Below, one piece after another: positions 8,957 through 22,625 of a DNA stretch of 62,749 nt; positions within the stretch are counted from its first letter, which is position 1; each line of letters starts with the position of its first letter. The stretch lies in NCBI GenBank assembly GCA_003551495.1, contig PUMT01000010.1:1-62749 (forward strand), read 5' to 3'. Both the position numbers and the translations under genes were made by a program. Origin of the DNA: Bacteroidota bacterium (GTDB lineage: Bacteria > Bacteroidota > Bacteroidia > Bacteroidales > PUMT01). A model generated the notes under the pieces. That model saw only the letters and a list, made by a program, of their open reading frames with translations. It made no database searches and had not been told where the DNA came from.

Positions 8957-8978
8957 GTTCTCTTAAATAAATATTCAT

Positions 8979-8986
8979 TATATTTG
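8979..8986 (+). promoter_or_regulatory. Bacteroidota -7 promoter box for the B12 operon
   Basis: TATATTTG (TAnnTTTG consensus) 3 nt before the riboswitch P1 strand. Confidence 0.7.
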
Positions 8987-8989
8987 CAG

Positions 8990-9187
8990 TGATTTGGTTT
9001 CCCGAAAGCTTTAACCTGCCTTTGGGATGAAAAGGGAATCAGGTGACCCGGTTTTCCGGGGATTCCTGAGCAGTACCCGCTGCTGTAAGCTCTTTTAACT
9101 TTCTGAACACACCTGCCACTGTTGGGTCTCACACCCATAACGGGAAGGCGTTCAGAAGGGGAGCAAGCCAGAAGACCTGCCAGATCA
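8990..9187 (+). ncRNA. Cobalamin (B12) riboswitch
   Basis: AAAAGGGAAtcaGGTG, CCtgagcagtaCCCgctgCTGTAAG, GCCACTG, CGGGAAGG and B12 box AAGCCAGAAGACCTGCC; P1 pairing TGATTTGGT/GCCAGATCA; precedes a btuB-like gene. Confidence 0.95.
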
Positions 9188-9232
9188 GATGAATAAGTAA
9201 TGTTCGGGTTAAACATTTAAACCTTTACCGTT

Positions 9233-11176
9233 TTGAAAAAATATTTCATTATTTCATTTGTTTTTGCTTTTCTGTTTATACCCCGTGTTTCAGGCGGGAT
9301 GAAGGATGATACACTCTCCACATACCATATCGGGGAAGTGACCATAAGTCATTCACGCGTTCGTTTCTTCCAGGAAAACAGAAAGGTTACCGCAGCAGAT
9401 TCACTTGACCTGGCCCACTTTTCCAATGACGACCTGGGAGCTCTTATTAATCATATTTCGCCTGCATATATCAATGTCAGGGGCGGAAACGGGTCAGCCG
9501 CAGGTATTACACTGCGGGGGACAAATTCAAGCCAGACCACAGTTAACTGGAATGGTTTCCAACTGAACTCCCTTACACTGGGCTCGGCCGACCTGTCACT
9601 TGTTCCTGTGGAAAGCATCCAGTCGGTCAGCATAATACACGGCTCTTCCGGCACCGTTTCAGGCAGCGGATCATTCGGAGGGTCGATCGAGCTGAGGAAT
9701 GAACCGGACTGGAATAACCGCCTGTCGGTTAAAGCAACTTCAGCTTACGGGAGCTTCAGCACAAAAAGGGCTTCTGTTTCTGCAAGGGCGGGCAGAGAAA
9801 AAATTCAGTATCATCTGAATTTATTCAGCATAAATGCTCTTAACGATTTTTCCTATACCGACAAAATGAAGCCCGGAAGCCCGGAAGAGACCATATCCCA
9901 CAATGCACTTGAAAACAGGGGTGCAATACAGAACCTGTTCGTCCGCCTCCCTCATGACCAGGAAATAGAAGCCGGACTTTGGTACCAGTCCAAATCAAAG
10001 GAAATACCCTCTATCATGGGCTCATACACACCCGGTAATGCGGTTCAACGCGACAGTATTATCAGGGGTTTTGTGAGCTGGACAATGATGACGGGTAAAT
10101 CGAGAATAAATGTGAGATCTTCCTTTATGGATGAGTATATGTTCTACACCGAAACACCTTCGGAAGAAGATAGCCACAATGGGTTAAACTCATCTATCAG
10201 GGGAAGGAAGTTTATGAACGATTTCAGCTACCGGTATTATCTTAACAATTCCATTACCATTGATGCCGGAGCCTCCTACAACAATATGGAAGCTGATGTG
10301 GAGGATTACAACGGAAAAGTTTCCGAATACCAGTCAGCCGTCTATACCGGATTAAGACTTAGCCGCAGCAGAATTGCAGCCACTCTGACCGCAAGGAAGG
10401 AGTTTCACCCTGAAATATCGGTGCCCCTGTTATTTTCGGCAGGGTTGCGCTATGACCATCCGGGAATGGATTATGCTTTAAAAATAAACTATTCAGATCA
10501 GTTCAGGATACCAACATTCAATGACAAGTACTGGCGGCCGGGGGGGAATCCCGGACTGCTGCCGGAGTCGGGTTACACAGTTGACGGGGGCGTGGAGCTT
10601 TCGGGAGAACCTGCCGAAAACCTGGAGCTTAACGGGTAAATAAGCCGTTTCCACTCCAGGATCAAAAACATGATACAATGGGTTCCCGGAAGCAGCTACT
10701 GGTCACCCAGGAACAACAAGGAGGTTCACATAAGCGGTGCGGAGTTCTCACTTAACGGGTCACTTGGTTTGTCAGGTTACAGTCTTGATCTCGACGCAAG
10801 CTACAGTTACAGCATGCCAAGGATAAACAGGACATACGACCAGGAGAGCGGACTGAAGGGCAATATGACCGAGTATGTGCCTGCACATTCGGCAGTTACC
10901 CGGATATCACTTCTGAAAGACAGTGGACATGCAGGCATATCGGTAAACTACACAGGAAGCAGGTACACAACAAGAGATAATAATCCTGTTTACAAATTGC
11001 CGCCCTTCACTCTTTTCAATTTGCATTTCGGTTATAGTATTACCCTTCAGGATATTGAAACCACACTTCAGTTAAGGGTAATGAATGTTTTCGACCGAAG
11101 CTACCAGGTAGTCCGTGCCTACCCGATGCCCGGGAGGTCAATCCAGGGCACACTTAAATTAAACTTTTCAAGATAA
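9233..11176 (+). pseudogene. btuB: TonB-dependent cobalamin receptor interrupted by a single in-frame TAA (10637-10639); pseudogene or sequence error
   Basis: ORFs 9233..10639 and 10670..11176 share a frame; the junction reads LELNG*ISRFHSRIKNMIQWVP. Plug motif LRGTNSSQTTVNWNG, RIPTFNDKYW..GGNP.L.PESG and YPMPGR. Riboswitch upstream. Confidence 0.85.
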
Positions 11177-11219
11177 CTTTATTCAACACATTTTTTCATT
11201 TTAAAACTTTTTAATTCTT

Positions 11220-12299
11220 ATGAAGCGTATATCCAATTATTTTGTTTTTGTATTTCTGATCCAGGCAATGCTATTCCTCTCATGCGAAAAGGATGACGCC
11301 AACCCTGCCCTGGAGGGTTATGCCGGGGGAATTTTTATAACCAACGAGGGGGCTTTCGGGAACAGCAACGGTTCTGTCAGCCATTTCTGTATTGATTCAA
11401 ACAGGGTGGTAAACAATCTGTTTGAAAAGGTTAATGGAAGAAACCCCGGTGATGTTTTACAGTCATTTGGGACTGAAGGGAATTTGGGTGTGATTGTTGT
11501 AAATAATTCGCAGAAAATTGAGGTTGTTGACCTTGAAACTTTTGAATCGGTTGGGACAATAACCGGATTCAGCTATCCGAGATATTTCACTGGAATTGGC
11601 AACGGTATGGGTTACCTGTCCAACGGCAACCTTGCCGGGGAGGTGTACCTTATCGACCTGAATATGATGGAGGTTGCCGACACTATTGAAATAGGAATGG
11701 GTCCTGAACAGATGGCCAGGTCTGGTAACTATGTATTTGTTGCAAACAGCGGCGGCTGGGATTTTGACAACACCGTATCTGTAATAAATACCGGAACCCA
11801 TGAGGTAGAAAAAGTTGTTGAAGTGGGTGATATCCCGGTAGCAGCCGTTACCGATGCAAACGGTGATGTGTGGGTTCTTTGCCGAGGGAAAGTGGTTTAT
11901 GATGACACATGGACAACAATTATCGAAGAGACCGATTCGAGGCTGGTCAGGATTGACGGTACTACTCATGAAGTTGTTACCAGCATTGTTATAGGAGAGC
12001 AAGGTGATTACTTCAACCCTTCATGGTTATCCATTTGTCCGTCAGGAGAAGAGCTCCTGTTCGGGGAAGTGGAAGGACTTTATATGATGGAAATTAGCAG
12101 TGATGAGCAACCTTCCGCACCTCTCATAGAAGAAGAGTTTTCCCATGCCCTTATCGAAAGCCATACAGGCAATATACTGGCTCTCATGGTAACGGATTAC
12201 AGCTCTGCAGGACGGTTGCACATTTACACAGCAGGGGGTGAGAAAACAGGATCTTTTGATGTTGGCATAGGTCCGAACGGATTATACACCAATTATTAA
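11220..12299 (+). CDS. btuG: BtuG-like surface B12-binding beta-propeller lipoprotein (YncE/DUF5074)
   Basis: Lipobox LFLSC followed by acidic residues, NEGAFG.SNGSVS, IVVNNS.KIEVVD, GIGPNG C-terminus; directly after btuB. Confidence 0.8.
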   Translation: MKRISNYFVFVFLIQAMLFLSCEKDDANPALEGYAGGIFITNEGAFGNSNGSVSHFCIDSNRVVNNLFEKVNGRNPGDVLQSFGTEGNLGVIVVNNSQKIEVVDLETFESVGTITGFSYPRYFTGIGNGMGYLSNGNLAGEVYLIDLNMMEVADTIEIGMGPEQMARSGNYVFVANSGGWDFDNTVSVINTGTHEVEKVVEVGDIPVAAVTDANGDVWVLCRGKVVYDDTWTTIIEETDSRLVRIDGTTHEVVTSIVIGEQGDYFNPSWLSICPSGEELLFGEVEGLYMMEISSDEQPSAPLIEEEFSHALIESHTGNILALMVTDYSSAGRLHIYTAGGEKTGSFDVGIGPNGLYTNY

Positions 12300-12468
12300 A
12301 ATGACTCTTGCTCTTTTAAAAAATAAAATGTAGGTTTGGGTGTCCGTTCAGGGTGAAGGCTCCCGATAGCCTGTGTATGGGAAAGATTTTACACAACAAG
12401 CATGATCCGGCTTTTACAGGGAGCAATATCATATTTGACAGTAAGGGTAACGGATCAAACATGTCAGA

Positions 12469-14634
12469 ATGAAAAACCTGATCTATATTAAGGCTTATTT
12501 TCACAGACCTTTTTTTATTCCGGGCTTCCTGATTTTATTTTTATTGTTTTTTCCAAATGAACTCAATGGGCAAAAAAGTTATGGAGGCAGGCCTTTCCCT
12601 TTGTCCCCAACTGAGCTTGAAAAAACCCCCGTTGCTGAAATGCCCCGGTTTAATATTCATGATGCAAGAAAGAAAACAGAGATGAAGCTCAGAGAAAGCA
12701 ACCTGAAAAAACTGGATTTTGCACGCTCGTTTGAAGTTGATTTCACACCCGACAATTCGGGGAAGTGGACAGTTAACAGCGAAGGAACGAGGATATGGCG
12801 GCTGATTGTCCATTCGCGAAATGCTCATTCCATCAATATTATATTCAACAGGTTCCTGCTCAGTCCGGGTGCCACACTCTTTTTATACAACCCTGACCAG
12901 TCGGATATCCTTGGAGGCTTCAACCATTTGAACAACCGCCCATCAGGCACCCTTGCAGTTTCACCCCTGCCTGGAGACCGTGTTGTACTGGAGCTTCAGG
13001 TATTGCCAGGCGCGGACAACTGGGGCGAACTCTCTTTAGGATCGGTATCCCACGATTTCATGGGAGTTTTTGGTCAAAAAAGTCAGCAATTCGGACTTTC
13101 AGGTAAATGTAACATTGACATAAACTGTCCGGAAGGAGATTACTGGCAGATGGAAAAGAACAGTGTCGTCAGACTTGTTATTAACGGCAACAGCCTGTGT
13201 ACAGGTGTTCTCCTGAATAATGCCGAAAATGACGGAACCCCTTACCTCCTCACTGCAAACCACTGCATAGACAGCGAATCCAAAGCCGCCAACACTGTAT
13301 TTCTCTTCAATTTTGAAAGCCCATCATGCAATGGTCCGGGGCCTCCCGCTAACAACACACTTTCCGGGTCTGACCTGAAAGCAACAAGTACCGCACTCGA
13401 CTTTACGCTTGTAGAGTTTGACACCACCCCGCCAAGGGAGTACCGTCCTTTCCTGGCCGGCTGGAGCAGAAGCAGCGACCCGGCCGATTCAACCGCAGGC
13501 ATACACCATCCCATGGGAGATGTAAAAAAGATCTCAATGGACTTTGACAACCCTTCTGTAGCCACATTTGGCCTAAACTATGTTCCCGGTGGTTCATGGA
13601 GAGTAAACAAATGGGATATCGGAACTACAGAAGGAGGGTCTTCCGGGTCCCCCCTGTTTGACCAAAACAGGAGGGTTGTCGGAACTCTTATTGGGGGCGA
13701 TGCATACTGCGGCCATTCTGTCAATGATTACTATTCGCGTTTTGACATGGCGTGGGATTACTACCCGGAAGAAGACAGGCAACTGATGGCATGGCTCGAT
13801 CCCGAAGACAAGGGGGTAACGGAGGTTGACGGTCTAAATCCATATGCTGAATCGGACCTGAAAGCGGACTTCGAAATAAATTCATCAGAAGTTTGCGATG
13901 GCAGTCATTTTGTATTTACAGACTATTCGACAGGCGCTATCGATGCATATTTCTGGGATTTTGGCGAAGGAGCCGAACCTGCCACTTCGGTTGAACCCGG
14001 GCCACATTTTGTTTTGTATGAAAGTGGAGGGACTAAAACAGTTACCCTGAGGGTTGACAGCGGTGAAGAGTATGATATCATAGAAAGGGAGGCGGATCTG
14101 TCAATAATGACTGAAAACCTGCCTGTTGCTTCTTTTGATTATGAAACAGGGGAGCAGCAGAACGGCGAATCAGTCAGGATTAACTTTTTCGACCAGTCAC
14201 TTAACGCCGCAACTTACTACTGGGAGTTCGGGAACAGAACGATCAGCACACTTCAGAATCCAACAGCAACCTATTTTTTTGAAAGCAATTACGAGGTGAT
14301 GCTAATGATAAGGAACATGGTATGTACAGACCGGGAATCCAAAACAGTCGAAGTGGTCATAGAAGAACCTCCGGATGACCCGCCATTTGCAGATGAGATG
14401 TCAATATATCCTGTGCCTGCAACTGAAAATATTTACGTTGAACTTTCCAGGGCACTAAGGGGGCCCGGCACAGTCAGGATATCCAACATTAAGGGGCAGT
14501 TAGTTAAAGAAAAAAAGTACACAAGGGAAGATTATCTTATTGAGGTCAATATTCAGGATCTGTCCCCCGGAATTTACCTTGTGAATGTTTTCAACAATTT
14601 CAATTCAAAGGTTAAAAAAATATCAGTTTTCTGA
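12469..14634 (+). CDS. T9SS-secreted trypsin-like serine protease (lysyl endopeptidase family) with PKD domains and type A CTD
   Basis: LTANHC, DFTL, IHHP.GD.KK, TEGGSSGSPLF; WDFGEGA/WEFGN PKD motifs; IYPVPA...GIYLV...KKISV CTD. Confidence 0.9.
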   Translation: MKNLIYIKAYFHRPFFIPGFLILFLLFFPNELNGQKSYGGRPFPLSPTELEKTPVAEMPRFNIHDARKKTEMKLRESNLKKLDFARSFEVDFTPDNSGKWTVNSEGTRIWRLIVHSRNAHSINIIFNRFLLSPGATLFLYNPDQSDILGGFNHLNNRPSGTLAVSPLPGDRVVLELQVLPGADNWGELSLGSVSHDFMGVFGQKSQQFGLSGKCNIDINCPEGDYWQMEKNSVVRLVINGNSLCTGVLLNNAENDGTPYLLTANHCIDSESKAANTVFLFNFESPSCNGPGPPANNTLSGSDLKATSTALDFTLVEFDTTPPREYRPFLAGWSRSSDPADSTAGIHHPMGDVKKISMDFDNPSVATFGLNYVPGGSWRVNKWDIGTTEGGSSGSPLFDQNRRVVGTLIGGDAYCGHSVNDYYSRFDMAWDYYPEEDRQLMAWLDPEDKGVTEVDGLNPYAESDLKADFEINSSEVCDGSHFVFTDYSTGAIDAYFWDFGEGAEPATSVEPGPHFVLYESGGTKTVTLRVDSGEEYDIIEREADLSIMTENLPVASFDYETGEQQNGESVRINFFDQSLNAATYYWEFGNRTISTLQNPTATYFFESNYEVMLMIRNMVCTDRESKTVEVVIEEPPDDPPFADEMSIYPVPATENIYVELSRALRGPGTVRISNIKGQLVKEKKYTREDYLIEVNIQDLSPGIYLVNVFNNFNSKVKKISVF

Positions 14635-15794
14635 TGAACAGCACATTACGCTATATATTTGCTTTTTTTTTTATTCCTGCTGCAATATCCATCTGGTCAT
14701 GCAGCGGAAATATATCAACTGATGACGGATCAGGTGATAACTGCCGTGAGTTAAACCATGCAGTGGGATTCTGCATTGAAGACAGGGAGGGATACAGGAA
14801 ATTAACAGTTTACAATCCATGGCAGGGTGCAAGAAACAGGGTTTTTTCCTGGTATCTTGTAACCCGTAACGATCCGTTGCCTCCTGGTATCCGTGAAAGC
14901 AGGGTTATAAGGACACCTGTTGAAAGAATTGTCTGCCTTTCAACAACACATATCGCCCTGATTGACCAGTTGGGTGAAACCTCCAGTATATCGGCCGTTT
15001 CAAACAGTAAACTGGTCAACAATACCTTATTGAGAAGGCGAATCGAAGAGGGGAAATTGCCTGATATAGGCTACGAGCAAAATCTCGATTTTGAGAAGAT
15101 CCTGTCTCTGCAGCCATGTCTGGTTACAGCTTACGGTGTTGGAAGCGAAGCATCCGGATATGTTCAAAGGCTTGAGGAACTGGGTATAAATGTTGTAATT
15201 ATCGGGGAATATCTTGAACCCACACCACTTGCCCAGGCAGAGTGGATTAAGTTCATGGCTGCATTTTTCAATCTCGATGAACTGGCTGAAGAAAAGTTCA
15301 GTAAAACCGAAAAAAAGTACAATGAAGTTGCTTCCCTTATTTCTGCAGTTGAAGATAAACCTGTAGTGATGGCCGGACTGCCATGGAGGAACAGCTGGTT
15401 CGTCCCCGGCGGTCGCTCTTTTTTTGCAACAATGGTTGAAGATGCCGGGGGGAATTATATCTGGAAAAACAATTCCTCCAGGGAAAACTTTCCAATAGAC
15501 ATGGAAAAGATGTTTGAGGCCGGTGACAGCGCTGATATATGGCTCAATACCGGCTCAGCAAAAAGCACTGATGAGATACTCAATGTTGACACCCGGCTCT
15601 CAACACTGCCTCCTTTCCGGAATGGCAGAATTTACAACAATACAGCCAGGTTGAATGAATATGGAGGAAACGATTTCTGGGAAAGGGGGATAACAGAACC
15701 GCACATAATACTCAGGGATCTTGCATACATTTTCCACCCCTCCCTCCTGCCCGGCCACGAACATGTTTATTACGAAAAGATAGGCGAACGGTAA
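14634..15794 (+). CDS. btuF: B12/iron-chelate ABC transporter substrate-binding lipoprotein
   Basis: Lipobox IWSC, PVERIVCLSTTH, EYLE.TPL..AEWIKF, GGNDFWE.G; operon context. Confidence 0.8.
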   Translation: MNSTLRYIFAFFFIPAAISIWSCSGNISTDDGSGDNCRELNHAVGFCIEDREGYRKLTVYNPWQGARNRVFSWYLVTRNDPLPPGIRESRVIRTPVERIVCLSTTHIALIDQLGETSSISAVSNSKLVNNTLLRRRIEEGKLPDIGYEQNLDFEKILSLQPCLVTAYGVGSEASGYVQRLEELGINVVIIGEYLEPTPLAQAEWIKFMAAFFNLDELAEEKFSKTEKKYNEVASLISAVEDKPVVMAGLPWRNSWFVPGGRSFFATMVEDAGGNYIWKNNSSRENFPIDMEKMFEAGDSADIWLNTGSAKSTDEILNVDTRLSTLPPFRNGRIYNNTARLNEYGGNDFWERGITEPHIILRDLAYIFHPSLLPGHEHVYYEKIGER

Positions 15795-15804
15795 TATGTA
15801 ACCG

Positions 15805-16836
15805 ATGGAAAGAAATAAAAACATACTCCTGTTTGTGTTGCTGGGATTGCTGACTGTTGGACTGTTTACTGCATCAGTCTTTACAGGTTCTGTTCACATA
15901 CCGGTAAGTGAAATTGCCAGGATCATTGGTGGAGGAGAGCCTCTGAGGCCGGAATGGAAAACAATTGTGCTTGACCTCAGGGTTCCAAGGGCTCTTACAG
16001 CTCTTCTTGCAGGTATGGGGTTGGCGGTGAGCGGACTTCAGATGCAGACCGTATTCCGGAACCCCCTTGCAGGACCTTTTGTCCTCGGTATTACGGCAGG
16101 TGCCAGTCTTGGAGTTGCACTGGTCGTGCTCGGCTATGCCTGGATATTTACCGCAAGCCAGTCCATTCCCGGAAACTGGCTCCTCATTGCATCAGCATGG
16201 CTGGGATCGGGAGCCGTACTTTTTATTATAATGCTCGTCTCTGTGAGGGTCAGGGATATTATGACAATACTTATTCTCGGGATAATGTTTGGCAGTGCCG
16301 CTACCGCCCTGGTCAGCGTTTTGCAGTATTTCAGCGAAGAAGCAATGCTCAGGTCTTACGTAATATGGACTATGGGAAGTCTCGGCAATGTTTCCAGGTC
16401 ACAAATGCAAATTTTCCTGCCGGCAATTTTAACGGGAGTACTTATTTCGCTTATATCTGCTAAAACCTTAAACGCACTGCTGCTTGGGGAAAATTATGCA
16501 CGGAGCCTTGGTGTGAGTATCACAGCAGCACGTTTTACGGTGTTTCTGAGCACTAGTGTGCTGGCGGGCACTGTTACAGCTTTTTGCGGACCTATAGGAT
16601 TTATCGGGATTGCCGTACCACATATTGCAAGAATGATTACAAAAAATGCAAATCACAGGATGCTTCTCCCGTCAACCATTTTAACCGGGGGGATTATCAT
16701 GCTGGCAAGCGATATAGTTTCGCGGCTGCCCGGACACGAAAGCGCCCTTCCCATAAATTCGGTAACAGCACTTATCGGGATCCCGGTGGTGATCTGGATA
16801 ATTATCAAGAATCAAAAATTCTCAAAAATGGTCTGA
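15805..16836 (+). CDS. btuC: FecCD/BtuC family ABC permease
   Basis: R.PRALTA, QT.FRNPLA.P..LGI..GA, LLLGE.YA.SLG, GPIGFIGIAVPHIAR. Confidence 0.85.
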   Translation: MERNKNILLFVLLGLLTVGLFTASVFTGSVHIPVSEIARIIGGGEPLRPEWKTIVLDLRVPRALTALLAGMGLAVSGLQMQTVFRNPLAGPFVLGITAGASLGVALVVLGYAWIFTASQSIPGNWLLIASAWLGSGAVLFIIMLVSVRVRDIMTILILGIMFGSAATALVSVLQYFSEEAMLRSYVIWTMGSLGNVSRSQMQIFLPAILTGVLISLISAKTLNALLLGENYARSLGVSITAARFTVFLSTSVLAGTVTAFCGPIGFIGIAVPHIARMITKNANHRMLLPSTILTGGIIMLASDIVSRLPGHESALPINSVTALIGIPVVIWIIIKNQKFSKMV

Positions 16837-16837
16837 T

Positions 16838-17869
16838 ATGGACAACGGTGAAACTGAAAAACTATCTGTATCGGATTTGACTGTCGGATATCCGCGCCGT
16901 GGCAAAGAGGCGGGGATGATCTTTCCGAGTATTAATGCTTCAGCCGGGAAAGGTGAGCTGGTTGCCCTTTTCGGAAGGAACGGCATTGGCAAAAGCACCC
17001 TGCTTAGAAGTATGGCCAATTTGCAGAAGCCACTGGAAGGGAAGATCATGGTCTCAGGGAAAGAAATAGTAAAATACTCTCCCAATGAGCTTGCCCGGAC
17101 TATCAGTTTTGTTTCAACCGAACGGATCAACGTAAACAACCTGAAGGTTGCCGATATGGTGGCATTCGGCCGTTTCCCCTATACGGGGTGGACAGGCAGG
17201 CTGAGCAGGGAAGATTCGGAAACAGTCGACAGTGCCCTGAATATGGTAGGGATGAGCCACATGGCCGGCAAAAACATCAACCATATAAGCGACGGGGAAC
17301 GTCAAAGAGTTATGATAGCACGCTCCCTTGCACAAGACACCCCTTTCATAATACTGGATGAACCAACGGCATTTCTTGACCTTCCCAACAAATATGAGGT
17401 TGTGCATTTGCTGGGGAGGATGGCTTCGGAAAAAAACAAGACCGTCATATTTTCCACACACGACCTGGGTATAGCCATTCAGGCGGCAGACAAGGTATGG
17501 ATTATGCTGGAAGACCGGCTGACTGAAGGGTCGCCTGAAGACCTTGTGATTAACAGGTCGTTTGGAAGTATGTTTACCGATTCCAGGCTCACTTTCAATG
17601 ATGAAACCGCTGAATTCAGAATAAAAAGAAAAGCAGAAAGAAAAATTCGTGTTACCGGAAAGGGAAGGGAACATTTGTGGACAGGAAAGGCTCTTGAAAG
17701 AATAGGTTTCGAGGTCTCCTCCGAAAAAGTGGTGGACACTGAAGTCAACGTTATAAGCGGGAAAGGGAATAAAACCAAATGGGAATTGCGGAATCCGTCA
17801 AAGATAAAAGAATTTGATTCGGTTTACAGCCTGTGTTATTTCCTAAAAAACAATTTCAGCGCCATTTGA
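16838..17869 (+). CDS. btuD: ABC transporter ATP-binding protein
   Basis: Walker A GRNGIGKST, signature ISDGERQR, Walker B ILDEPT, STHD. Confidence 0.85.
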   Translation: MDNGETEKLSVSDLTVGYPRRGKEAGMIFPSINASAGKGELVALFGRNGIGKSTLLRSMANLQKPLEGKIMVSGKEIVKYSPNELARTISFVSTERINVNNLKVADMVAFGRFPYTGWTGRLSREDSETVDSALNMVGMSHMAGKNINHISDGERQRVMIARSLAQDTPFIILDEPTAFLDLPNKYEVVHLLGRMASEKNKTVIFSTHDLGIAIQAADKVWIMLEDRLTEGSPEDLVINRSFGSMFTDSRLTFNDETAEFRIKRKAERKIRVTGKGREHLWTGKALERIGFEVSSEKVVDTEVNVISGKGNKTKWELRNPSKIKEFDSVYSLCYFLKNNFSAI

Positions 17870-17926: not shown

Positions 17927-18904
17927 CTAATACCTGTTCAGCCAGCGGTATCTCCTTGCAGAATCACCAAATTTCATGCTTACCATTATCTCATGTGAGC
18001 CGAAGCTGTGCTTCCTTATGCTGCTCAATGTGTAATCAAATGCATAACCAAAATAGAGCCTGTCAACCCTCACTCCTCCCATCATTACAAATGCACCGCT
18101 TGTTCTGTAAGACAGCCCCGCCCAGTAGTCGTCCATATAATAGACCCTGGTGTTAATGTCAAATTGGGGCATCCCACTGAGAGTTGACTGCATCAGTAAC
18201 GAAGGTTCGATAGTTATTTCATCAAGGAATATACCGTATCCTCCCATCAGGTAAAAATGCCTCTCCATTTTGTAGTCCCTGAAACCGTCGCTCCCGAATT
18301 TCAGGGCTGATTCGAGCAGCTGTGCAACCGCCAATCCAACGTAAAAATCTGTTTCCCTGTAGTAAACGCCAAGGTTGGCATCCGGCACATATAGTGCGTT
18401 CTTGCTGCTGTTCAACAGCGGGTCGTTATCATCGTAAAGGTTCAGGTTCCTGTCGTCTATACGGAGCTGGAAACCGGTAAGTGAAACACCAAATGAAAGC
18501 TGCCTGGTCCGGTCCATGCTTATATGATATGAGTATGTAGCCTGAAACCCTGTCCTGTCAATTAATCCGTTTTTATCATTGTAAATATAACCTCCCAGTC
18601 CCACATTACCGCTGCGGCTCATTGAAGCCGGCCTTCTGCGTATACTTCTGGAGCGGTCGATAGGGCTCTGCCTGAGAAGGCGGGTTGTTGTACTGAGAGC
18701 AATTGTACGGGGTGAGTTCTCAAAACCAACCCACTGTTCCCTTGCTGTAAGGCTTACTGTCGTGAAGCCGTCATGACCTGCCACTGCAGGATTAAGCAGA
18801 AAGCTGTTCATCATGTACTGGCTGTACAGAGGCAATTGCTGTCCCTTCAATGAAATGAGCGGCAGGAATAATATCAATATTAATATATATCTCTTTTTCA
18901 GCAT
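17927..18904 (-). CDS. PorP/SprF family type IX secretion outer-membrane protein
   Basis: QQLPLYSQYM.N..LLNPA.AG, REQWVG...SP.T, GYAFDY, GSHEI motifs. Confidence 0.93.
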   Translation of the reverse strand: MLKKRYILILILFLPLISLKGQQLPLYSQYMMNSFLLNPAVAGHDGFTTVSLTAREQWVGFENSPRTIALSTTTRLLRQSPIDRSRSIRRRPASMSRSGNVGLGGYIYNDKNGLIDRTGFQATYSYHISMDRTRQLSFGVSLTGFQLRIDDRNLNLYDDNDPLLNSSKNALYVPDANLGVYYRETDFYVGLAVAQLLESALKFGSDGFRDYKMERHFYLMGGYGIFLDEITIEPSLLMQSTLSGMPQFDINTRVYYMDDYWAGLSYRTSGAFVMMGGVRVDRLYFGYAFDYTLSSIRKHSFGSHEIMVSMKFGDSARRYRWLNRY

Positions 18905-19047
18905 GTTTCTGCATTGTAAAAGTTAACGTCCATCTTTTGACATCATCTAAAACCGATGTATGAAGAACCGTATAATTACTTTAACGTAATGTTTAATTTG
19001 TAGTTTCAATAATTTAGTTAAACTTCAGCAATATAATAAAATTACAT

Positions 19048-20076
19048 TTATCTTACAATTGTTACGGTTCCGGTTACTTCAATCTTTGAACCATCATTGA
19101 GCCTGATAACATAATGGTATGAATCCATAGACAGCGGGCGTCCCCTGTATCTGCCGTCCCATGGTTCGGGATTCCCCGGTTGCGATACAAAAACTCTTTC
19201 ACCCCAGCGGTTGAATACTTCCACTACCGCATTCGGGAATTCAACTGAAAGTTCCTGGCCGTTCTCGTCACGTATGATCCATGTGTCATTGAACCCGTCA
19301 TCATTCGGAGTAAACACATTTGGCACATTAAGTTCGATTACAATTTCACAAAGGTCAATGAATATGGTATCCGATGCCGAACAGCCCTCATTTGTAAACA
19401 CTTCAACCCAGATTTCTGTTGGCACATCTGTGCCGAACACCGTTACAGTCTGGGTAACGTCGCCCGTTGACCAGTTGTATATATCGCCGTCATCACCGGC
19501 ATCGAGCAGGATGCTCTCATCAGGACAAAGAACGGTATCATCTCCCAGGTCAACTTCAGGAAGCGGGTTGACAACCAGCTCAACAGTATCCCTTCCGATC
19601 AGCCCATCTTCATTTACAACCTGCACCCAGTAAGTCCCAGCTTCACCTGTTGCAAATGTCCGGCCTATCTGATCCGGGTCATCATTCCAGAGATATGATA
19701 CATATCCTTCCCCTGCATCAAAAACATATATCTCCCCTTCGCATATCTCAACCCTGTCAGGGAACGGATCATAATCGAGGTATTCTGTTATTTCAACATA
19801 AGTATAAACTGTATCTCCCGTACAGCCGTAAATATTTGTTTCCACTACCTTCAACTCATATACGCCGGGCACTGTTCCCCAGTCAACCACTATCCGGTTG
19901 TTTGAGAAAGTGACGATCTCTCCTCCTTCAACCCACCATTCGTATAAAGACCCGGGGGTCTCATCCACGCCATAGTGAAAACCGGAAGAGCCGGCAGGGA
20001 CGGTGTGCAACACCTGCCCCTGCGCGGCTATCCCGTAAGAGATCAGCAGCAATATTGCAAGGTAGCGTAAAATCAA
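19048..20076 (-). CDS. T9SS substrate with type B (gliding-motility-associated) C-terminal domain and PKD/Ig-like repeats
   Basis: VPNVFTPNDDGFNDTW, VFNRWG..VF, WDGRYRG, G.VTIVR; P.VDLG.DT.LC repeats; signal peptide; TTG start. Confidence 0.9.
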   Translation of the reverse strand: MILRYLAILLLISYGIAAQGQVLHTVPAGSSGFHYGVDETPGSLYEWWVEGGEIVTFSNNRIVVDWGTVPGVYELKVVETNIYGCTGDTVYTYVEITEYLDYDPFPDRVEICEGEIYVFDAGEGYVSYLWNDDPDQIGRTFATGEAGTYWVQVVNEDGLIGRDTVELVVNPLPEVDLGDDTVLCPDESILLDAGDDGDIYNWSTGDVTQTVTVFGTDVPTEIWVEVFTNEGCSASDTIFIDLCEIVIELNVPNVFTPNDDGFNDTWIIRDENGQELSVEFPNAVVEVFNRWGERVFVSQPGNPEPWDGRYRGRPLSMDSYHYVIRLNDGSKIEVTGTVTIVR

Positions 20077-20118
20077 GTTTTACAGCTGTTTGTTATTTAC
20101 AGTTTATAATATATCTCT

Positions 20119-21033
20119 TTACAATTCACCGTGTCCTTCAGGTATGTGGAATATCGGACCTGTTTGCGGTGTGGGGTTCACAATAATTGCAAAAGTAACC
20201 GGGTCAGTTTCGTACCAGGTAGTCTCACCCAGAAGGTAATCAGACCTGCGCGAGATAAGGTCGGTTATACCTGTAATGGTGTAGGTGTACCTTGTACGCC
20301 TGTTGTTCTCAACAACAAGGTCGCGGTCAGCATCAAACACAAATGTCTCTTCGCTTACGCGTGTATAGCTCGTGCCTCCACCTACTACCGATTCACCACT
20401 CTCAACAGTAACAGCCTCGCCAACCGGGTTACCATCCTCATCGACCTCCTGTCTAACAAGCTCCCACCTTACCTGGAAGTTGGGAAAACCGCTCAGCTCT
20501 ATCGATGCGTCAAAACCCTCCAGGTCACCACACTGCTGGTAGGTTTCACCATCTGCAATTTCCAGTACATCCAGAAATGAAGGGAATGAATGGATCTCGG
20601 GAGCTTCAACAACCCTTATGGTAATATCTGTTCCCTCGGGATCTTCACAACCACCGAACTCTTCCGGGGCCTGCTCCTTCACGTTCAGAACGAAATCACC
20701 AACCTGGTTGGCAGTAATCTCCACATAATTGAGATCCTGATTAGCCAGTGTCAGCTGGTTCCCCCATTCCCAGGCTTCGGCAACCGGTCCCCAGTTCCAT
20801 GTAAACCCGGGTGTGATATTATCGGATACGGGTTCAAAATCCGGATGGTAATAGTTGTCAGGCTCGACATAAAAAGGCATTGTCCTTCCAACCGTAATGT
20901 ATGAAACATTTTCGTCATCGGCTGCATTACCGAAGTCCCCGGCATCCTGTGCCAGGGCACCGCCTATGGTAAACAAGGTTACCATTAACACTGTAAATAA
21001 CTTTTTAGCAAACTTTCTCTCTTCTGTTTTCAT
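20119..21033 (-). CDS. Exported two-domain Ig/PKD-like protein ending in PTPQTGPIFHIP; candidate filament subunit
   Basis: Signal peptide ending ALA-Q (start reassigned to MKTEERK at 21033); acidic, beta-rich; no canonical CTD. Confidence 0.75.
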   Translation of the reverse strand: MKTEERKFAKKLFTVLMVTLFTIGGALAQDAGDFGNAADDENVSYITVGRTMPFYVEPDNYYHPDFEPVSDNITPGFTWNWGPVAEAWEWGNQLTLANQDLNYVEITANQVGDFVLNVKEQAPEEFGGCEDPEGTDITIRVVEAPEIHSFPSFLDVLEIADGETYQQCGDLEGFDASIELSGFPNFQVRWELVRQEVDEDGNPVGEAVTVESGESVVGGGTSYTRVSEETFVFDADRDLVVENNRRTRYTYTITGITDLISRRSDYLLGETTWYETDPVTFAIIVNPTPQTGPIFHIPEGHGEL

Positions 21034-21129
21034 GATTAAAAAATTTAAATTAGTATTAGAATTGTTTTTGGTTTTCGAATTCATTTTTTCAGTTATTATG
21101 TTTTATCATTTCATTTTAATATCTTTAAC

Positions 21130-22350
21130 TTATTCAATATTAGCAATATGGAAATTAGAGCCAGCAACCGGCATCCTGTAAATTTCCGCTTCTGCTTCTT
21201 CACCTTCAACTATTCCAGCTCCATTGGCATCTGAAATGGATATGACGGAATAGATATACTGTGTCATAATACCGTTATTCAGCCATTCAGGAGGATCAGG
21301 CACAGCCAGTTCATATATGTAGGGGCTTCCCCCTTCAAGATCGGTTTCCTGAATTGTAATATCCTCCCATAAATTGCTATGGTTATCCTCAAGGGACAAT
21401 GTGAAAGGCGGTGTACCTGACAGTGAGATCTCCAAAACCACATATTCCCCTTCACATGCCGGTGAGCCGGATATCAACCCGGTTATTTCCGCAACCGGTC
21501 CTGCAATAACCATCACCTCCAGCGAATCGGAAATACGGCAGCCGTACTCATTTGTTGCGGAAAAAATATAGTATCCTTCCATTCCGGGTGTTGCAGGATC
21601 AGTTTCTGTCTCTGTGCCGTAATAAAGGAAATTTTCAGGCCCCTTCCATCTGTATGTCAGATCACTTTCGTCAGGATCCTCTGCTTCACCTGTAAGTTCT
21701 ATCGGTTCTCCCTGGGCAACCGGACTGTTTGAGGTGATGTGGGTTATCTCCGGAAATACGGGACAGTTATCCTGTATAAAGTCGTTTACCGGACTGTCTT
21801 CAGCATCATCCATATCTCCGTAGTTGCAGCCGGTATGTTCATGGCCTTCTGTATCACATTCCAGCACGTTGCTGTCGTCCATCTCCGGGACACTCCCACC
21901 TATATACACCTGGGGCGGTTCGGACTCACTGTTGAAGCTTCCCTGGCTGGATGAACCGCTTTTGGTCATATCCCCTGTTACGACAAGTGTGCCGTTTGCT
22001 GCAATATCTACACGATTTGCAATTGAGAGATTGCCATATATAATAAGTACTGCCCCCTCGTTCAGTGAAAGGTCGGCGTTATTTCCCAAAGTAAGGTCAC
22101 CGTGAATAATAAGAGTATCGTGGACTGTTAACAGGCCTCTGTGATAATCAATAGAAGTGCCTGATGAAATATATCCGAAAATATCAACATCTGCATCTAT
22201 ATGATCAACACCAGGAGATTCCCCTTCCACCCAGCTGTCGGGATCATTCCATTCACCTGTATAATTATCTTTTGATACAAAATCTTGTCCCGTTGCCGCA
22301 TATGAAATTGCAAAAAACAAAAATGCAGCAGCGAGGTATCTTAGTCTCAT
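21130..22350 (-). CDS. Exported protein with beta-solenoid-like N-domain, Ig-like domains and PVAGSNFHIA tail; candidate tip adhesin
   Basis: Signal peptide; repeats LIIHGDL/LIIYGNL/LVVTGDM; NSPV..GE.IEL and Y.WKGP.NF Ig motifs; C-domain resembles that of 20119..21033. Confidence 0.72.
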   Translation of the reverse strand: MRLRYLAAAFLFFAISYAATGQDFVSKDNYTGEWNDPDSWVEGESPGVDHIDADVDIFGYISSGTSIDYHRGLLTVHDTLIIHGDLTLGNNADLSLNEGAVLIIYGNLSIANRVDIAANGTLVVTGDMTKSGSSSQGSFNSESEPPQVYIGGSVPEMDDSNVLECDTEGHEHTGCNYGDMDDAEDSPVNDFIQDNCPVFPEITHITSNSPVAQGEPIELTGEAEDPDESDLTYRWKGPENFLYYGTETETDPATPGMEGYYIFSATNEYGCRISDSLEVMVIAGPVAEITGLISGSPACEGEYVVLEISLSGTPPFTLSLEDNHSNLWEDITIQETDLEGGSPYIYELAVPDPPEWLNNGIMTQYIYSVISISDANGAGIVEGEEAEAEIYRMPVAGSNFHIANIE

Positions 22351-22625
22351 CTTTTTAAGCGTAATAATTCCGTAGTTATAGCTTTAGATGTTTATTAAAT
22401 ATTCAGCTATTATTTTGAAGTGACCTCCATTTATTTCCCCCATTTTTAACGGATTAAGAGTCATTTCAAACGTAATGCACTATTCTTTACGGAAAAAAGC
22501 TGTATTAGGTTTTAAAAAAGGATGGATATTATGTGAAATATCGATTTTACCTGATAAAATAAACATTTCCTTCAGCGAAAGTGTTAACTGTTTACAAAAG
22601 AAAACACGGGTTATGAATTGTTTTT

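Follow-up and report, generated by a model that had tools for sequence, protein, structure and literature searches.

Four co-oriented genes lie on the reverse strand of the window, by which we mean the whole 62,749-nucleotide stretch of Bacteroidota DNA that we analyzed. The original prediction read them as the tip, shaft, anchor and outer-membrane partner of a new surface filament, and all four open reading frames, together with the motifs quoted from them, are where it had placed them. The run comprises just A, B, C and porP, with opposite-strand genes on both flanks, and has the following features.

21130 to 22350, reverse strand: A, 406 aa, predicted tip adhesin and terminator.
20119 to 21033, reverse strand: B, 304 aa, predicted shaft subunit.
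19048 to 20076, reverse strand: C, 342 aa, TTG start, predicted base and anchor.
17927 to 18904, reverse strand: porP/sprF, 325 aa, PorP/SprF-family outer-membrane carrier, presumed cognate partner of C.
21133 to 21174, reverse strand: putative donor tail of A, the last 14 residues, a divergent copy that matches the B tail by profile.
20122 to 20175, reverse strand: predicted donor tail of B, residues 287-304.
22467 to 22474, reverse strand: candidate Bacteroidota -7 promoter element, one match, 117 bases upstream of A.
Parts of A: signal peptide, 1-21; beta-helix, about 22-195; complete Ig domain of the PKD-like kind, 200-283; final Ig domain, 284-392, which has the spare Cys299; donor tail, 393-406.
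Parts of B: signal peptide, 1-28; acceptor head, an Ig domain without its first strand, 43-142, with Cys129; second Ig domain, 146-286, with Cys168; donor tail, 287-304.
Parts of C: signal peptide; acceptor head, 21-100, with spare Cys85; two more repeats of Ig type; type B CTD, 250-342.

The B frame is open from 21084, and its second ATG is the start used by homologues. The octamer upstream of A matches what we take to be the Bacteroidota -7 promoter element; this motif occurs 38 times in the window against 55 expected, that is, without enrichment, and the candidate is weak. Searching the locus itself, we found no chaperone or usher genes in the four-gene run, and no porE-like gene is adjacent to C or porP in the window.

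A, B and C were expected to lack a lipobox and to have signal peptides ending before Gln, and this is borne out. Of 148 B homologues, 145 have Gln just after the signal peptide, as do A and C, and the two loose lipobox-like patterns in the B set both fall inside signal peptides. The proposed type B type IX secretion system (T9SS) CTD is present on C, which matches PF13585 (E 5.9e-19) and TIGR04131 above cut-off. The gene directly downstream matches PF11751 and TIGR03519 (E 1.3e-74), and SprA and GldM are present in the genome. On these family matches, C and porP appear to be an ordinary adjacent pair of type B cargo and carrier whose physical partnership is presumed.

Neither A nor B has a CTD or matches any family above cut-off in Pfam or NCBIfam, and none of the 148 B members has a CTD in Pfam. 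The model of A (pLDDT 84) opens with a beta-helix, as the suggestion of a beta-solenoid-like, adhesin-type N-domain would have it; in a fold search this domain matched the Caldicellulosiruptor adhesin domain 4wa0 (Z 12.2, rmsd 3.0, 140 aligned), and the Ig part of A matched GhpA 9flp (Z 11.8, rmsd 4.0, 166 aligned). The N-domain has no match above 0.81 in the ESM Atlas, and it recurs on 3 of the 12 homologues listed that end in a type B CTD (P0183, P0185 and P0186). Profiles of the B head and of the C head gave no match in A, so no acceptor head was detected there.

B, a protein of no known family, was modeled as two Ig domains (pLDDT 92.8) followed by a tail, and its last 18 residues have neither secondary structure nor a strand partner; folding of the tail back onto its own chain, which would count against docking between subunits, did not occur in this monomer. 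Its homologues form 192 clusters at 50% identity, with a mean column identity of 17%; P58, C129, C168 and T291 are invariant in 148 sequences, and conservation is strongest in the tail and at both Cys. The 148 members do not match the FimA/Mfa fimbrillin family in Pfam, nor was that family matched in NCBIfam or by profile against PDB sequences. Fold searches with B returned generic tandem Ig domains at best (Z 8.0 or less), with no type V pilin among the matches listed, and the ESM Atlas yielded unnamed Bacteroidota clusters and PKD-like leads. Three PDB sequence matches at E 0.2-0.4 were taken as chance.

Pairwise BLAST comparisons between the subunits are insignificant (A/B, E 0.066; B/C, E 0.22; A/C likewise), but a head common to B and C, as had been claimed, emerges when the two are compared as profiles (P 95%, E 2.8e-8, 41 columns). 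The claim that A and B share a tail also stands by profile (P 97%, E 1.2e-11), whereas a common C-terminal domain is supported no further than that both are Ig folds, the match being 23 columns of last strand plus tail. Nine of the ten other pairings of domains reached P 35% or less; the A tail domain against the C head reached 56%. The tail consensus in the family is P-x-T-G-P-I-Y-H-I-P-N, from which the A tail of the window departs, and when the 5,098 frames of the genome were scored with a tail profile whose training set included A and B themselves, these two alone were positive.

That the B tail inserts into the head of another B is predicted by a two-chain model, which placed the tail (about 286-304) of one chain in the head of the other with a score of 0.89, against a best of 0.00 for three controls; the docking mark was reached by 116 of 157 solved pairs and by 2 of 215 mismatched ones. 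This score is a model confidence computed from an alignment that we built. The chains were cut so that tail-to-head was the sole docking open, and the model represents one joint and not a polymer. Runs agreed in at least 94% of contacts, with partner pLDDT of at least 82. The lowest-error contacts are those of residues 293-297 with 53-57 and 34-37 in the partner chain. The donor strand is clamped by residues 33-40, and the model docks without any cleavage. The score may partly reflect that tail and head together rebuild an ordinary Ig repeat of the kind seen in solved structures. In favor of strand donation, another T9SS protein of the genome contains an unsplit repeat that resembles a tail joined to a head within a single chain.

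The B-B interface includes residues 166-169 and 125-135. C129 and C168, the invariant Cys, thus lie within it, and a disulfide joining B subunits through these two residues is predicted from the model. Both Cys are present in 148 of 148 B sequences, 124 of which have exactly two. The head loop Cys of C is found in 46 of 47 homologues. The head strand Cys of C and the loop Cys of the next domain are both present in 35 of 47 proteins, both absent in 12 and never single; those 12 all belong to one family, and this co-variation therefore counts as one event.

The cluster occurs across many, mostly uncultured, Bacteroidales. A motif-only scan for the tail over 185,579 genomes gave 83 matches, and in all 80 loci fetched the tail lies at most five residues from the stop. 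Where there was room downstream, a type B CTD gene follows in 66 of 66 of these motif-selected loci and porP follows within 4.5 kb in 63 of 66, so the neighborhood survey agrees with the predicted linkage of tail, CTD and porP. The order B-C-porP is kept in other genomes; A is often unlinked to the cluster and present in several copies. Perlabentimonas gracilis M08_MB, for example, has B-C-porP and two tail-bearing tips. Across 301 genomes, a strong B occurs together with a listed tail-bearing tip in 32, a tip alone in 2 and B alone in 5. Detached tip matches are C-terminal in 22 of 22 cases, and three further tail-bearing proteins (521, 2,516 and 3,266 aa) have neither a type A nor a type B CTD. 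Such tips commonly run to 2,000-6,000 residues, against which the A of the window is small (406 aa). The B profile found nothing at E 1e-12 or better in a phylum-wide sample of 400 genomes, so that among the genomes searched the family was not found outside this order. In the sister genus, the protein profile detected no tail-bearing tip in 3 of 5 genomes and did detect tips in the other 2, and a DNA-pattern search of the same five for unlinked tips gave no more matches than its control. None of 51 stretches was confirmed in a search for related loci with B alone, and downstream of two B-like genes with tails (loci L070 and L071) none was flagged as having a CTD.

Within a genome, the tails of tips resemble that of B. 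Over 13 families the likeness was 373 against 259 +/- 22, a value reached in 0 of 50,000 shuffles, while the region upstream, used as a control, gave p 0.58. In a ranking by likeness to its own B tail, the A tail of the window came 12th of 13. Co-variation is expected if both tails fit the groove of B, and it could also stem from gene conversion or common ancestry. A second B paralogue, which looks like an adaptor to C, is present at many loci, and some loci have two to four B paralogues; in 4 of 4 multi-B loci scored, the tip tail is nearer to the first B than to the second. On expression, one RNA library of the same study is available as contigs, which cannot rank genes or show transcription; a contig of a diverged relative there includes the greater part of B and the beginning of C but no part of A. 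Codon bias, measured against 28 mostly ribosomal-operon genes, places B 353rd, A 385th, C 861st and porP 1292nd of 1,740, and is too weak in this genome to rank expression.

Taken together, these data lend computational support to the original prediction that each tail docks into the next head to give A-(B)n-C tethered through PorP/SprF, with the B-B joint modeled and A-B, B-C and C-PorP inferred. We put the probability of a pilus-like fiber of this composition, anchored through PorP without lipid, protease, chaperone or usher and opposite in polarity to type V pili, at roughly 60%. A, B and C would be non-lipidated proteins that reach the periplasm by Sec, a route suggested by their observed signal peptides. 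The heads of B and C would be PKD-like Ig domains without a first strand, which the tails of A and B would supply, as if a tandem-repeat T9SS adhesin had been cut between the first and second strands of a repeat. Donation was modeled for B-B, and homology suggests it for A-B and B-C. At each joint, the spare Cys in the last domain of the donor would form a locking disulfide with the loop Cys in the head of the acceptor, and such locking would point to joining in the periplasm. Since only C has a T9SS signal, C would leave the translocon first on PorP and draw the chain behind it, with B added at the trailing end; CTD-first exit from the T9SS has been described (PMC10994853, in the part available to us). 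A, with a tail and no groove, more likely ends assembly than starts it; it would cap the distal end and stop growth, so that the A:B ratio would set fiber length and differing tail-bearing adhesins would serve as exchangeable tips. The function is likely attachment to surfaces or cells. Against such a fiber, a locus with neither chaperone nor usher leaves control of periplasmic polymerization without explanation, and the papers that we consulted offer no precedent for threading a multi-chain polymer through SprA.

The joints could be real and the chain nonetheless short. A fixed A-B-C or few-B chain that lacks a long shaft of B and displays exchangeable giant adhesins on a single T9SS anchor is a serious minority possibility, and the present data appear to fit either a long pilus or a short chain. 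Most tips are themselves Ig rods of 2,000-6,000 residues, and B need not supply length; loci with two to four B paralogues suit an ordered chain; and type B carriers are scarce and used stoichiometrically, at least as far as the available part of PMC12618676 describes them. The B tail, however, is predicted to fit B's own type of head, the tails of the tip and the first B co-vary, the first B of two-B loci has a tip-like tail and the second a distinct one, and B is highly diverse except at its joints, all of which argue for the longer A-(B)n-C fiber.

We consider it unlikely that assembly takes place outside the cell, with A and B exported singly, either piggy-back on C or with the tail as a sorting signal that C/PorP or the translocon would read, and either linked together or set free at the cell surface. 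Such export would need no periplasmic polymerization, and the tail does take the place of a CTD on proteins otherwise like type B cargo and is, like sorting signals, strictly C-terminal. At 14-18 residues, however, it is far shorter than a CTD, its predicted partner is the head of B, a single C on each PorP could not bring out many B subunits unless recycled, and the periplasm is the compartment that favors disulfide formation. Far less probable still is that the tail has been conserved as a leftover of a split repeat, without any role between chains, and that docking reflects likeness to ordinary Ig repeats. The pairwise likenesses are weak and the docking test can pass the halves of split genes by likeness alone, but the tail and both Cys are the best-kept parts of a very diverse family, neighborhood and co-occurrence are near-strict, and without a role for the tail no route by which A and B might leave the periplasm is evident.

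If the A-(B)n-C fiber is real, the T9SS is a pilus assembly route that exports CTD-less proteins as chain links, which CTD-based prediction of secretomes would miss, and the family is a pilus that arose from a tandem-repeat adhesin split within a repeat. It would also account for giant "hypothetical" adhesins in environmental and anaerobic Bacteroidales, and a tail of 14-18 residues that couples cargo to a self-locking rod could serve as a protein-joining tag. The claim is directly testable, mature B being 276 residues. Literature searches that covered main texts and few subscription papers listed no published account of the A-B-C-porP system.

Several known systems share parts of this design. 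The type V pili of Porphyromonas gingivalis (FimA-E and Mfa1-5), as described in the available part of PMC8512630, likewise have a tip, shaft and anchor gene cluster and a C-terminal donor strand that enters the N-terminal domain of a neighbor, a trait that B-B shares by prediction. There, however, the Mfa3/4 tips are without a donor strand and the Mfa2 anchor needs its own C-terminus, whereas here tips carry the tail and C has a head and a CTD, a reversed polarity. Type V precursors are lipoproteins with Cys at +1, where A, B and C have Gln; the model here has no propeptide to cleave, the groove apparently being left open by the gene itself, anchoring falls to a type B CTD/PorP pair instead of lipid, an inter-subunit disulfide is predicted and there is no sequence match.

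C and porP are like SprB-SprF and PG1035-PorP (PMC9143113 and PMC12618676, consulted in part), down to Ig repeats of the same PKD-like kind; the cargo described there is one polypeptide with its own CTD, whereas here the rod is split across genes with a CTD on the base only. The GhpA grappling hook of Aureispira (10.1101/2024.01.29.577165) is likewise a giant T9SS appendage of Ig repeats with disulfides between nearby Ig domains, and the Ig domains of A match it structurally. In the available portion of that account, however, seven copies of a single 5,898-residue chain, which has a sorting domain of its own, make up GhpA, and its subunits exchange no strands. Chaperone-usher pili, the Elr/WxL pilus (10.64898/2026.10.17.759780) and TLP-1 fibrils (PMC11494351) likewise complete an Ig fold with a neighbor's strand and combine variable tips with a constant attachment module. 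As far as the consulted parts of these sources describe them, their donor strand is N-terminal, whereas here it is C-terminal and gives the first strand of the fold, and chaperone-usher and Elr/WxL pili need a chaperone plus an usher or sortase, whereas this locus has neither chaperone nor usher. The parts (Ig repeats, strand donation, type B CTD with PorP) are familiar, but as a combination they do not fit type V or chaperone-usher pili in the defining features that were tested. We give even odds that it constitutes a new class of pilus: a disulfide-locked polymer built by C-terminal donation of a first strand, with no need of a chaperone, an usher, a protease or a lipid. A single CTD-bearing subunit would draw this polymer through the type IX translocon base first, and exchangeable adhesin tips, the largest of ~6,000 residues, would end it.

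All four genes of the cluster lie on the minus strand where the original prediction placed them, with opposite-strand genes on both sides, and the cluster is real and conserved. We list them with the neighboring features:

17927..18904, minus strand, porP, the PorP/SprF carrier gene
19048..20076, minus strand, C, predicted base (342 aa)
20119..21033, minus strand, B, predicted shaft subunit (304 aa)
21130..22350, minus strand, A, predicted tip (406 aa)
8978-17869, plus strand, vitamin B12 uptake operon headed by a cobalamin riboswitch (RF00174, 103 bits)
9233-11176, plus strand, TonB-dependent receptor broken by one in-frame TAA at 10637-10639
12469-14634, mid-operon, trypsin-like PKD protease carrying a type A T9SS C-terminal domain (CTD)

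Family searches recovered a type B CTD in C, identified the last gene as a PorP/SprF protein, and gave no match above the cut-off for A or B. The cluster has one CTD, its signal peptides end before Gln, and gene order, tail, and cysteines are conserved in sequence. The window's genome holds a single copy of B and also encodes SprA and GldM. The B12 operon comprises the TonB-dependent receptor, a DUF5074 lipoprotein, and an ABC transporter; the receptor's plug lies ahead of the TAA and its barrel end past it, indicating either a pseudogene or an assembly error. Elsewhere in the genome, contigs C27, C36, C58, C60, and C105 carry several more large type B CTD-like Ig-repeat proteins, and four of these genes are directly followed by a PorP-sized, barrel-like gene.

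The likenesses originally proposed between A and B and between B and C hold as profiles but are not significant pairwise (E 0.066 and 0.22, respectively). Profile comparison aligned the B and C heads (P 95%, 41 columns) and the B and A tails (P 97%, 23 columns); because the latter match spans 23 columns, it demonstrates homology of A and B for the last strand and tail rather than for a whole shared C-terminal domain. Clustered at the 50% level, the relatives of B number 192. When 148 of these are aligned, identity averages 17% per column, with P58, C129, C168, and T291 fully conserved and P289, G292, I294, and H296 of the tail almost so. The monomer model (pLDDT 92.8) consists of two Ig domains plus a tail (287-304) that is confidently positioned and unpaired within its own chain, and fold searches returned generic Ig tandems only.

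For complex prediction we combined B 29-287, without its tail, with B 143-304, without its head, leaving tail-to-head as the sole open joint. The two-chain score was 0.89 (best control, 0.00), above a mark passed by 116/157 solved complexes and 2/215 mismatched pairs, which is only a rough guide here because our own alignment was used. At least 94% of contacts recurred between runs, with partner pLDDT of at least 82. Tail residues 293-297 contact strand 53-57 of the other chain in antiparallel orientation and are covered by residues 34-37; on our reading of the contact list, the docked tail would replace the first strand of the Ig fold. The same genome encodes a large T9SS protein with an unsplit repeat in which the head comes after the tail within a single chain, so the A/B/C system resembles a repeat adhesin with the cut placed behind its first strand. 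Because of this resemblance, likeness to solved Ig repeats may have contributed to the B-B pass.

Both B cysteines, one in the head loop and one early in the second domain, are kept in 148/148 relatives, and 124/148 have no other; Ig topology would place them at opposite ends of the monomer. Among 47 C proteins, the early head Cys and the next domain's loop Cys are both present in 35 and both absent in 12, a co-variation that counts as one event because all 12 are one family. This pattern fits a rule pairing domain n with domain n+1, under which the head-loop Cys of C (46/47 homologues), both B cysteines, and the Cys near the start of the tip's last domain (34/34, by a loose pattern) would have no same-chain partner. 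Residues 166-169 and 125-135 both fall within the predicted B-B interface, and disulfides link nearby Ig domains in GhpA (10.1101/2024.01.29.577165). We infer a disulfide between neighboring subunits, for which the prediction gave no bond distance.

B was found in 16/41 relatives with a single-protein search and in 68/301 genomes of the order with a profile, 37 of the 68 holding a strong B (E below 1e-20) among the matches listed; a phylum-wide sample gave 0/400 matches. Across the window and 56 fetched loci, B is followed by a CTD gene in 48. Of the remaining nine, two have a divergent B-like gene without the standard tail and then a CTD gene, three are cut off by the contig end, two extend upstream from loci that had already entered the count, and two (L070 and L071) showed no CTD gene. 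A motif-only search for the tail in 185,579 genomes yielded 83 matches, of which 80 were fetched; the motif lies within 5 residues of the stop in all 80 (75 and 5, in two batches), and 74/75 motif-selected genes are B, owing to how the motif was built. A CTD gene lies downstream in 66/66 motif-selected loci with at least 2.5 kb downstream (porP in 63/66), and 23/48 having a close upstream gene show a tail-bearing one.

Several loci depart from this layout. In two (L066 261-1456; L069 6900-11452), a CTD gene, joined by porP in L069, is preceded by B-like genes that are shorter or divergent and have other tails; the Atlas shows small PKD-like clusters of a similar kind. Such genes may belong to a broader set of related split-repeat systems beyond the profile's reach. 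Expanded loci (L063 3-16839; L067 3-10767) hold three or four B paralogues, the later ones with degenerate tails, and L063 has two tail-bearing genes upstream. At L055 11513-15653, porP precedes two B genes rather than following C. In the sister genus (L020-L025, L028), C is followed by a tandem porP pair and no tip gene lies alongside; in 3/5 of its genomes no tip was found.

The tail-bearing non-B proteins, our candidate tips, are mostly giant. Matches including the tail occur in at least 34 genomes (150 matches listed, 987 beyond these), of which 32 also hold a strong B and one holds a weak B-like gene, and in one no B was found; 5/37 strong-B genomes lack such a match among those listed. 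In 22/22 detached matches fetched, the protein ends within 6 residues of the match, and a CTD scan of three tail-bearing tip proteins found none. In 13 families, each represented by one pair chosen by hand, tip tails resemble their own genome's first-B tail (373 versus 259 +/- 22; 0/50,000 shuffles reach it), and the five residues upstream show no such resemblance (p 0.58). Tip tails are nearer the first B than the second in four scored multi-B loci, with five more loci shown, which suggests that tip and first B use one groove, B's own, and that later B copies adapt to C. The likeness could also stem from common ancestry or gene conversion, and in this window the small size of A and the rank of its tail (12 of 13) speak against the shared-groove reading. 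The N-domain of A, found also on ordinary CTD-bearing proteins, is modeled as a beta-helix and resembles an adhesin domain of Caldicellulosiruptor (Z 12.2, rmsd 3.0, 140 aligned). In Perlabentimonas gracilis (L198 900-12892), a tail-bearing protein of 3,266 aa and an A homologue of 521 aa (40% over A residues 26-240) form a divergent pair, on a separate contig from B-C-porP.

T9SS substrates exit the translocon CTD-first with their carrier (PMC10994853), and type B cargo is thought to remain anchored through PorP-like proteins (PMC9143113, PMC12618676). In the simplest model, to which we assign a probability of about 0.6, C would exit first, B would join at the trailing end of the chain behind it, and A, because it has no groove, would stop growth and become the tip. 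Tail-into-head insertion between two B chains is predicted; the A-B and B-C joints, periplasmic joining, and export behind C we infer. The B-B prediction covers a single joint, not a filament, and a short adaptor chain is a serious though distinctly less probable reading. The simplest model leaves the check on premature polymerisation unexplained; assembly outside the cell, or a sorting role, is unlikely. That the tail has no inter-chain role at all seems very improbable.

The cluster, which we favor reading as this C-first fibre, is probably a new pilus class. We found no description of it in the mostly open-access literature searched, which included accessible parts of the reviews PMC13721041 and PMC10202324. 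A type V pilus was rejected, as the cluster has no lipoprotein signal and no family match, and its polarity is reversed relative to the description in PMC8512630. Chaperone-usher pili donate N-terminal strands, as do Elr/WxL and TLP-1 fibres, and all three were rejected. In its predicted working the A/B/C system resembles a donor-strand pilus, and C and porP make up a conventional type B cargo/carrier pair.
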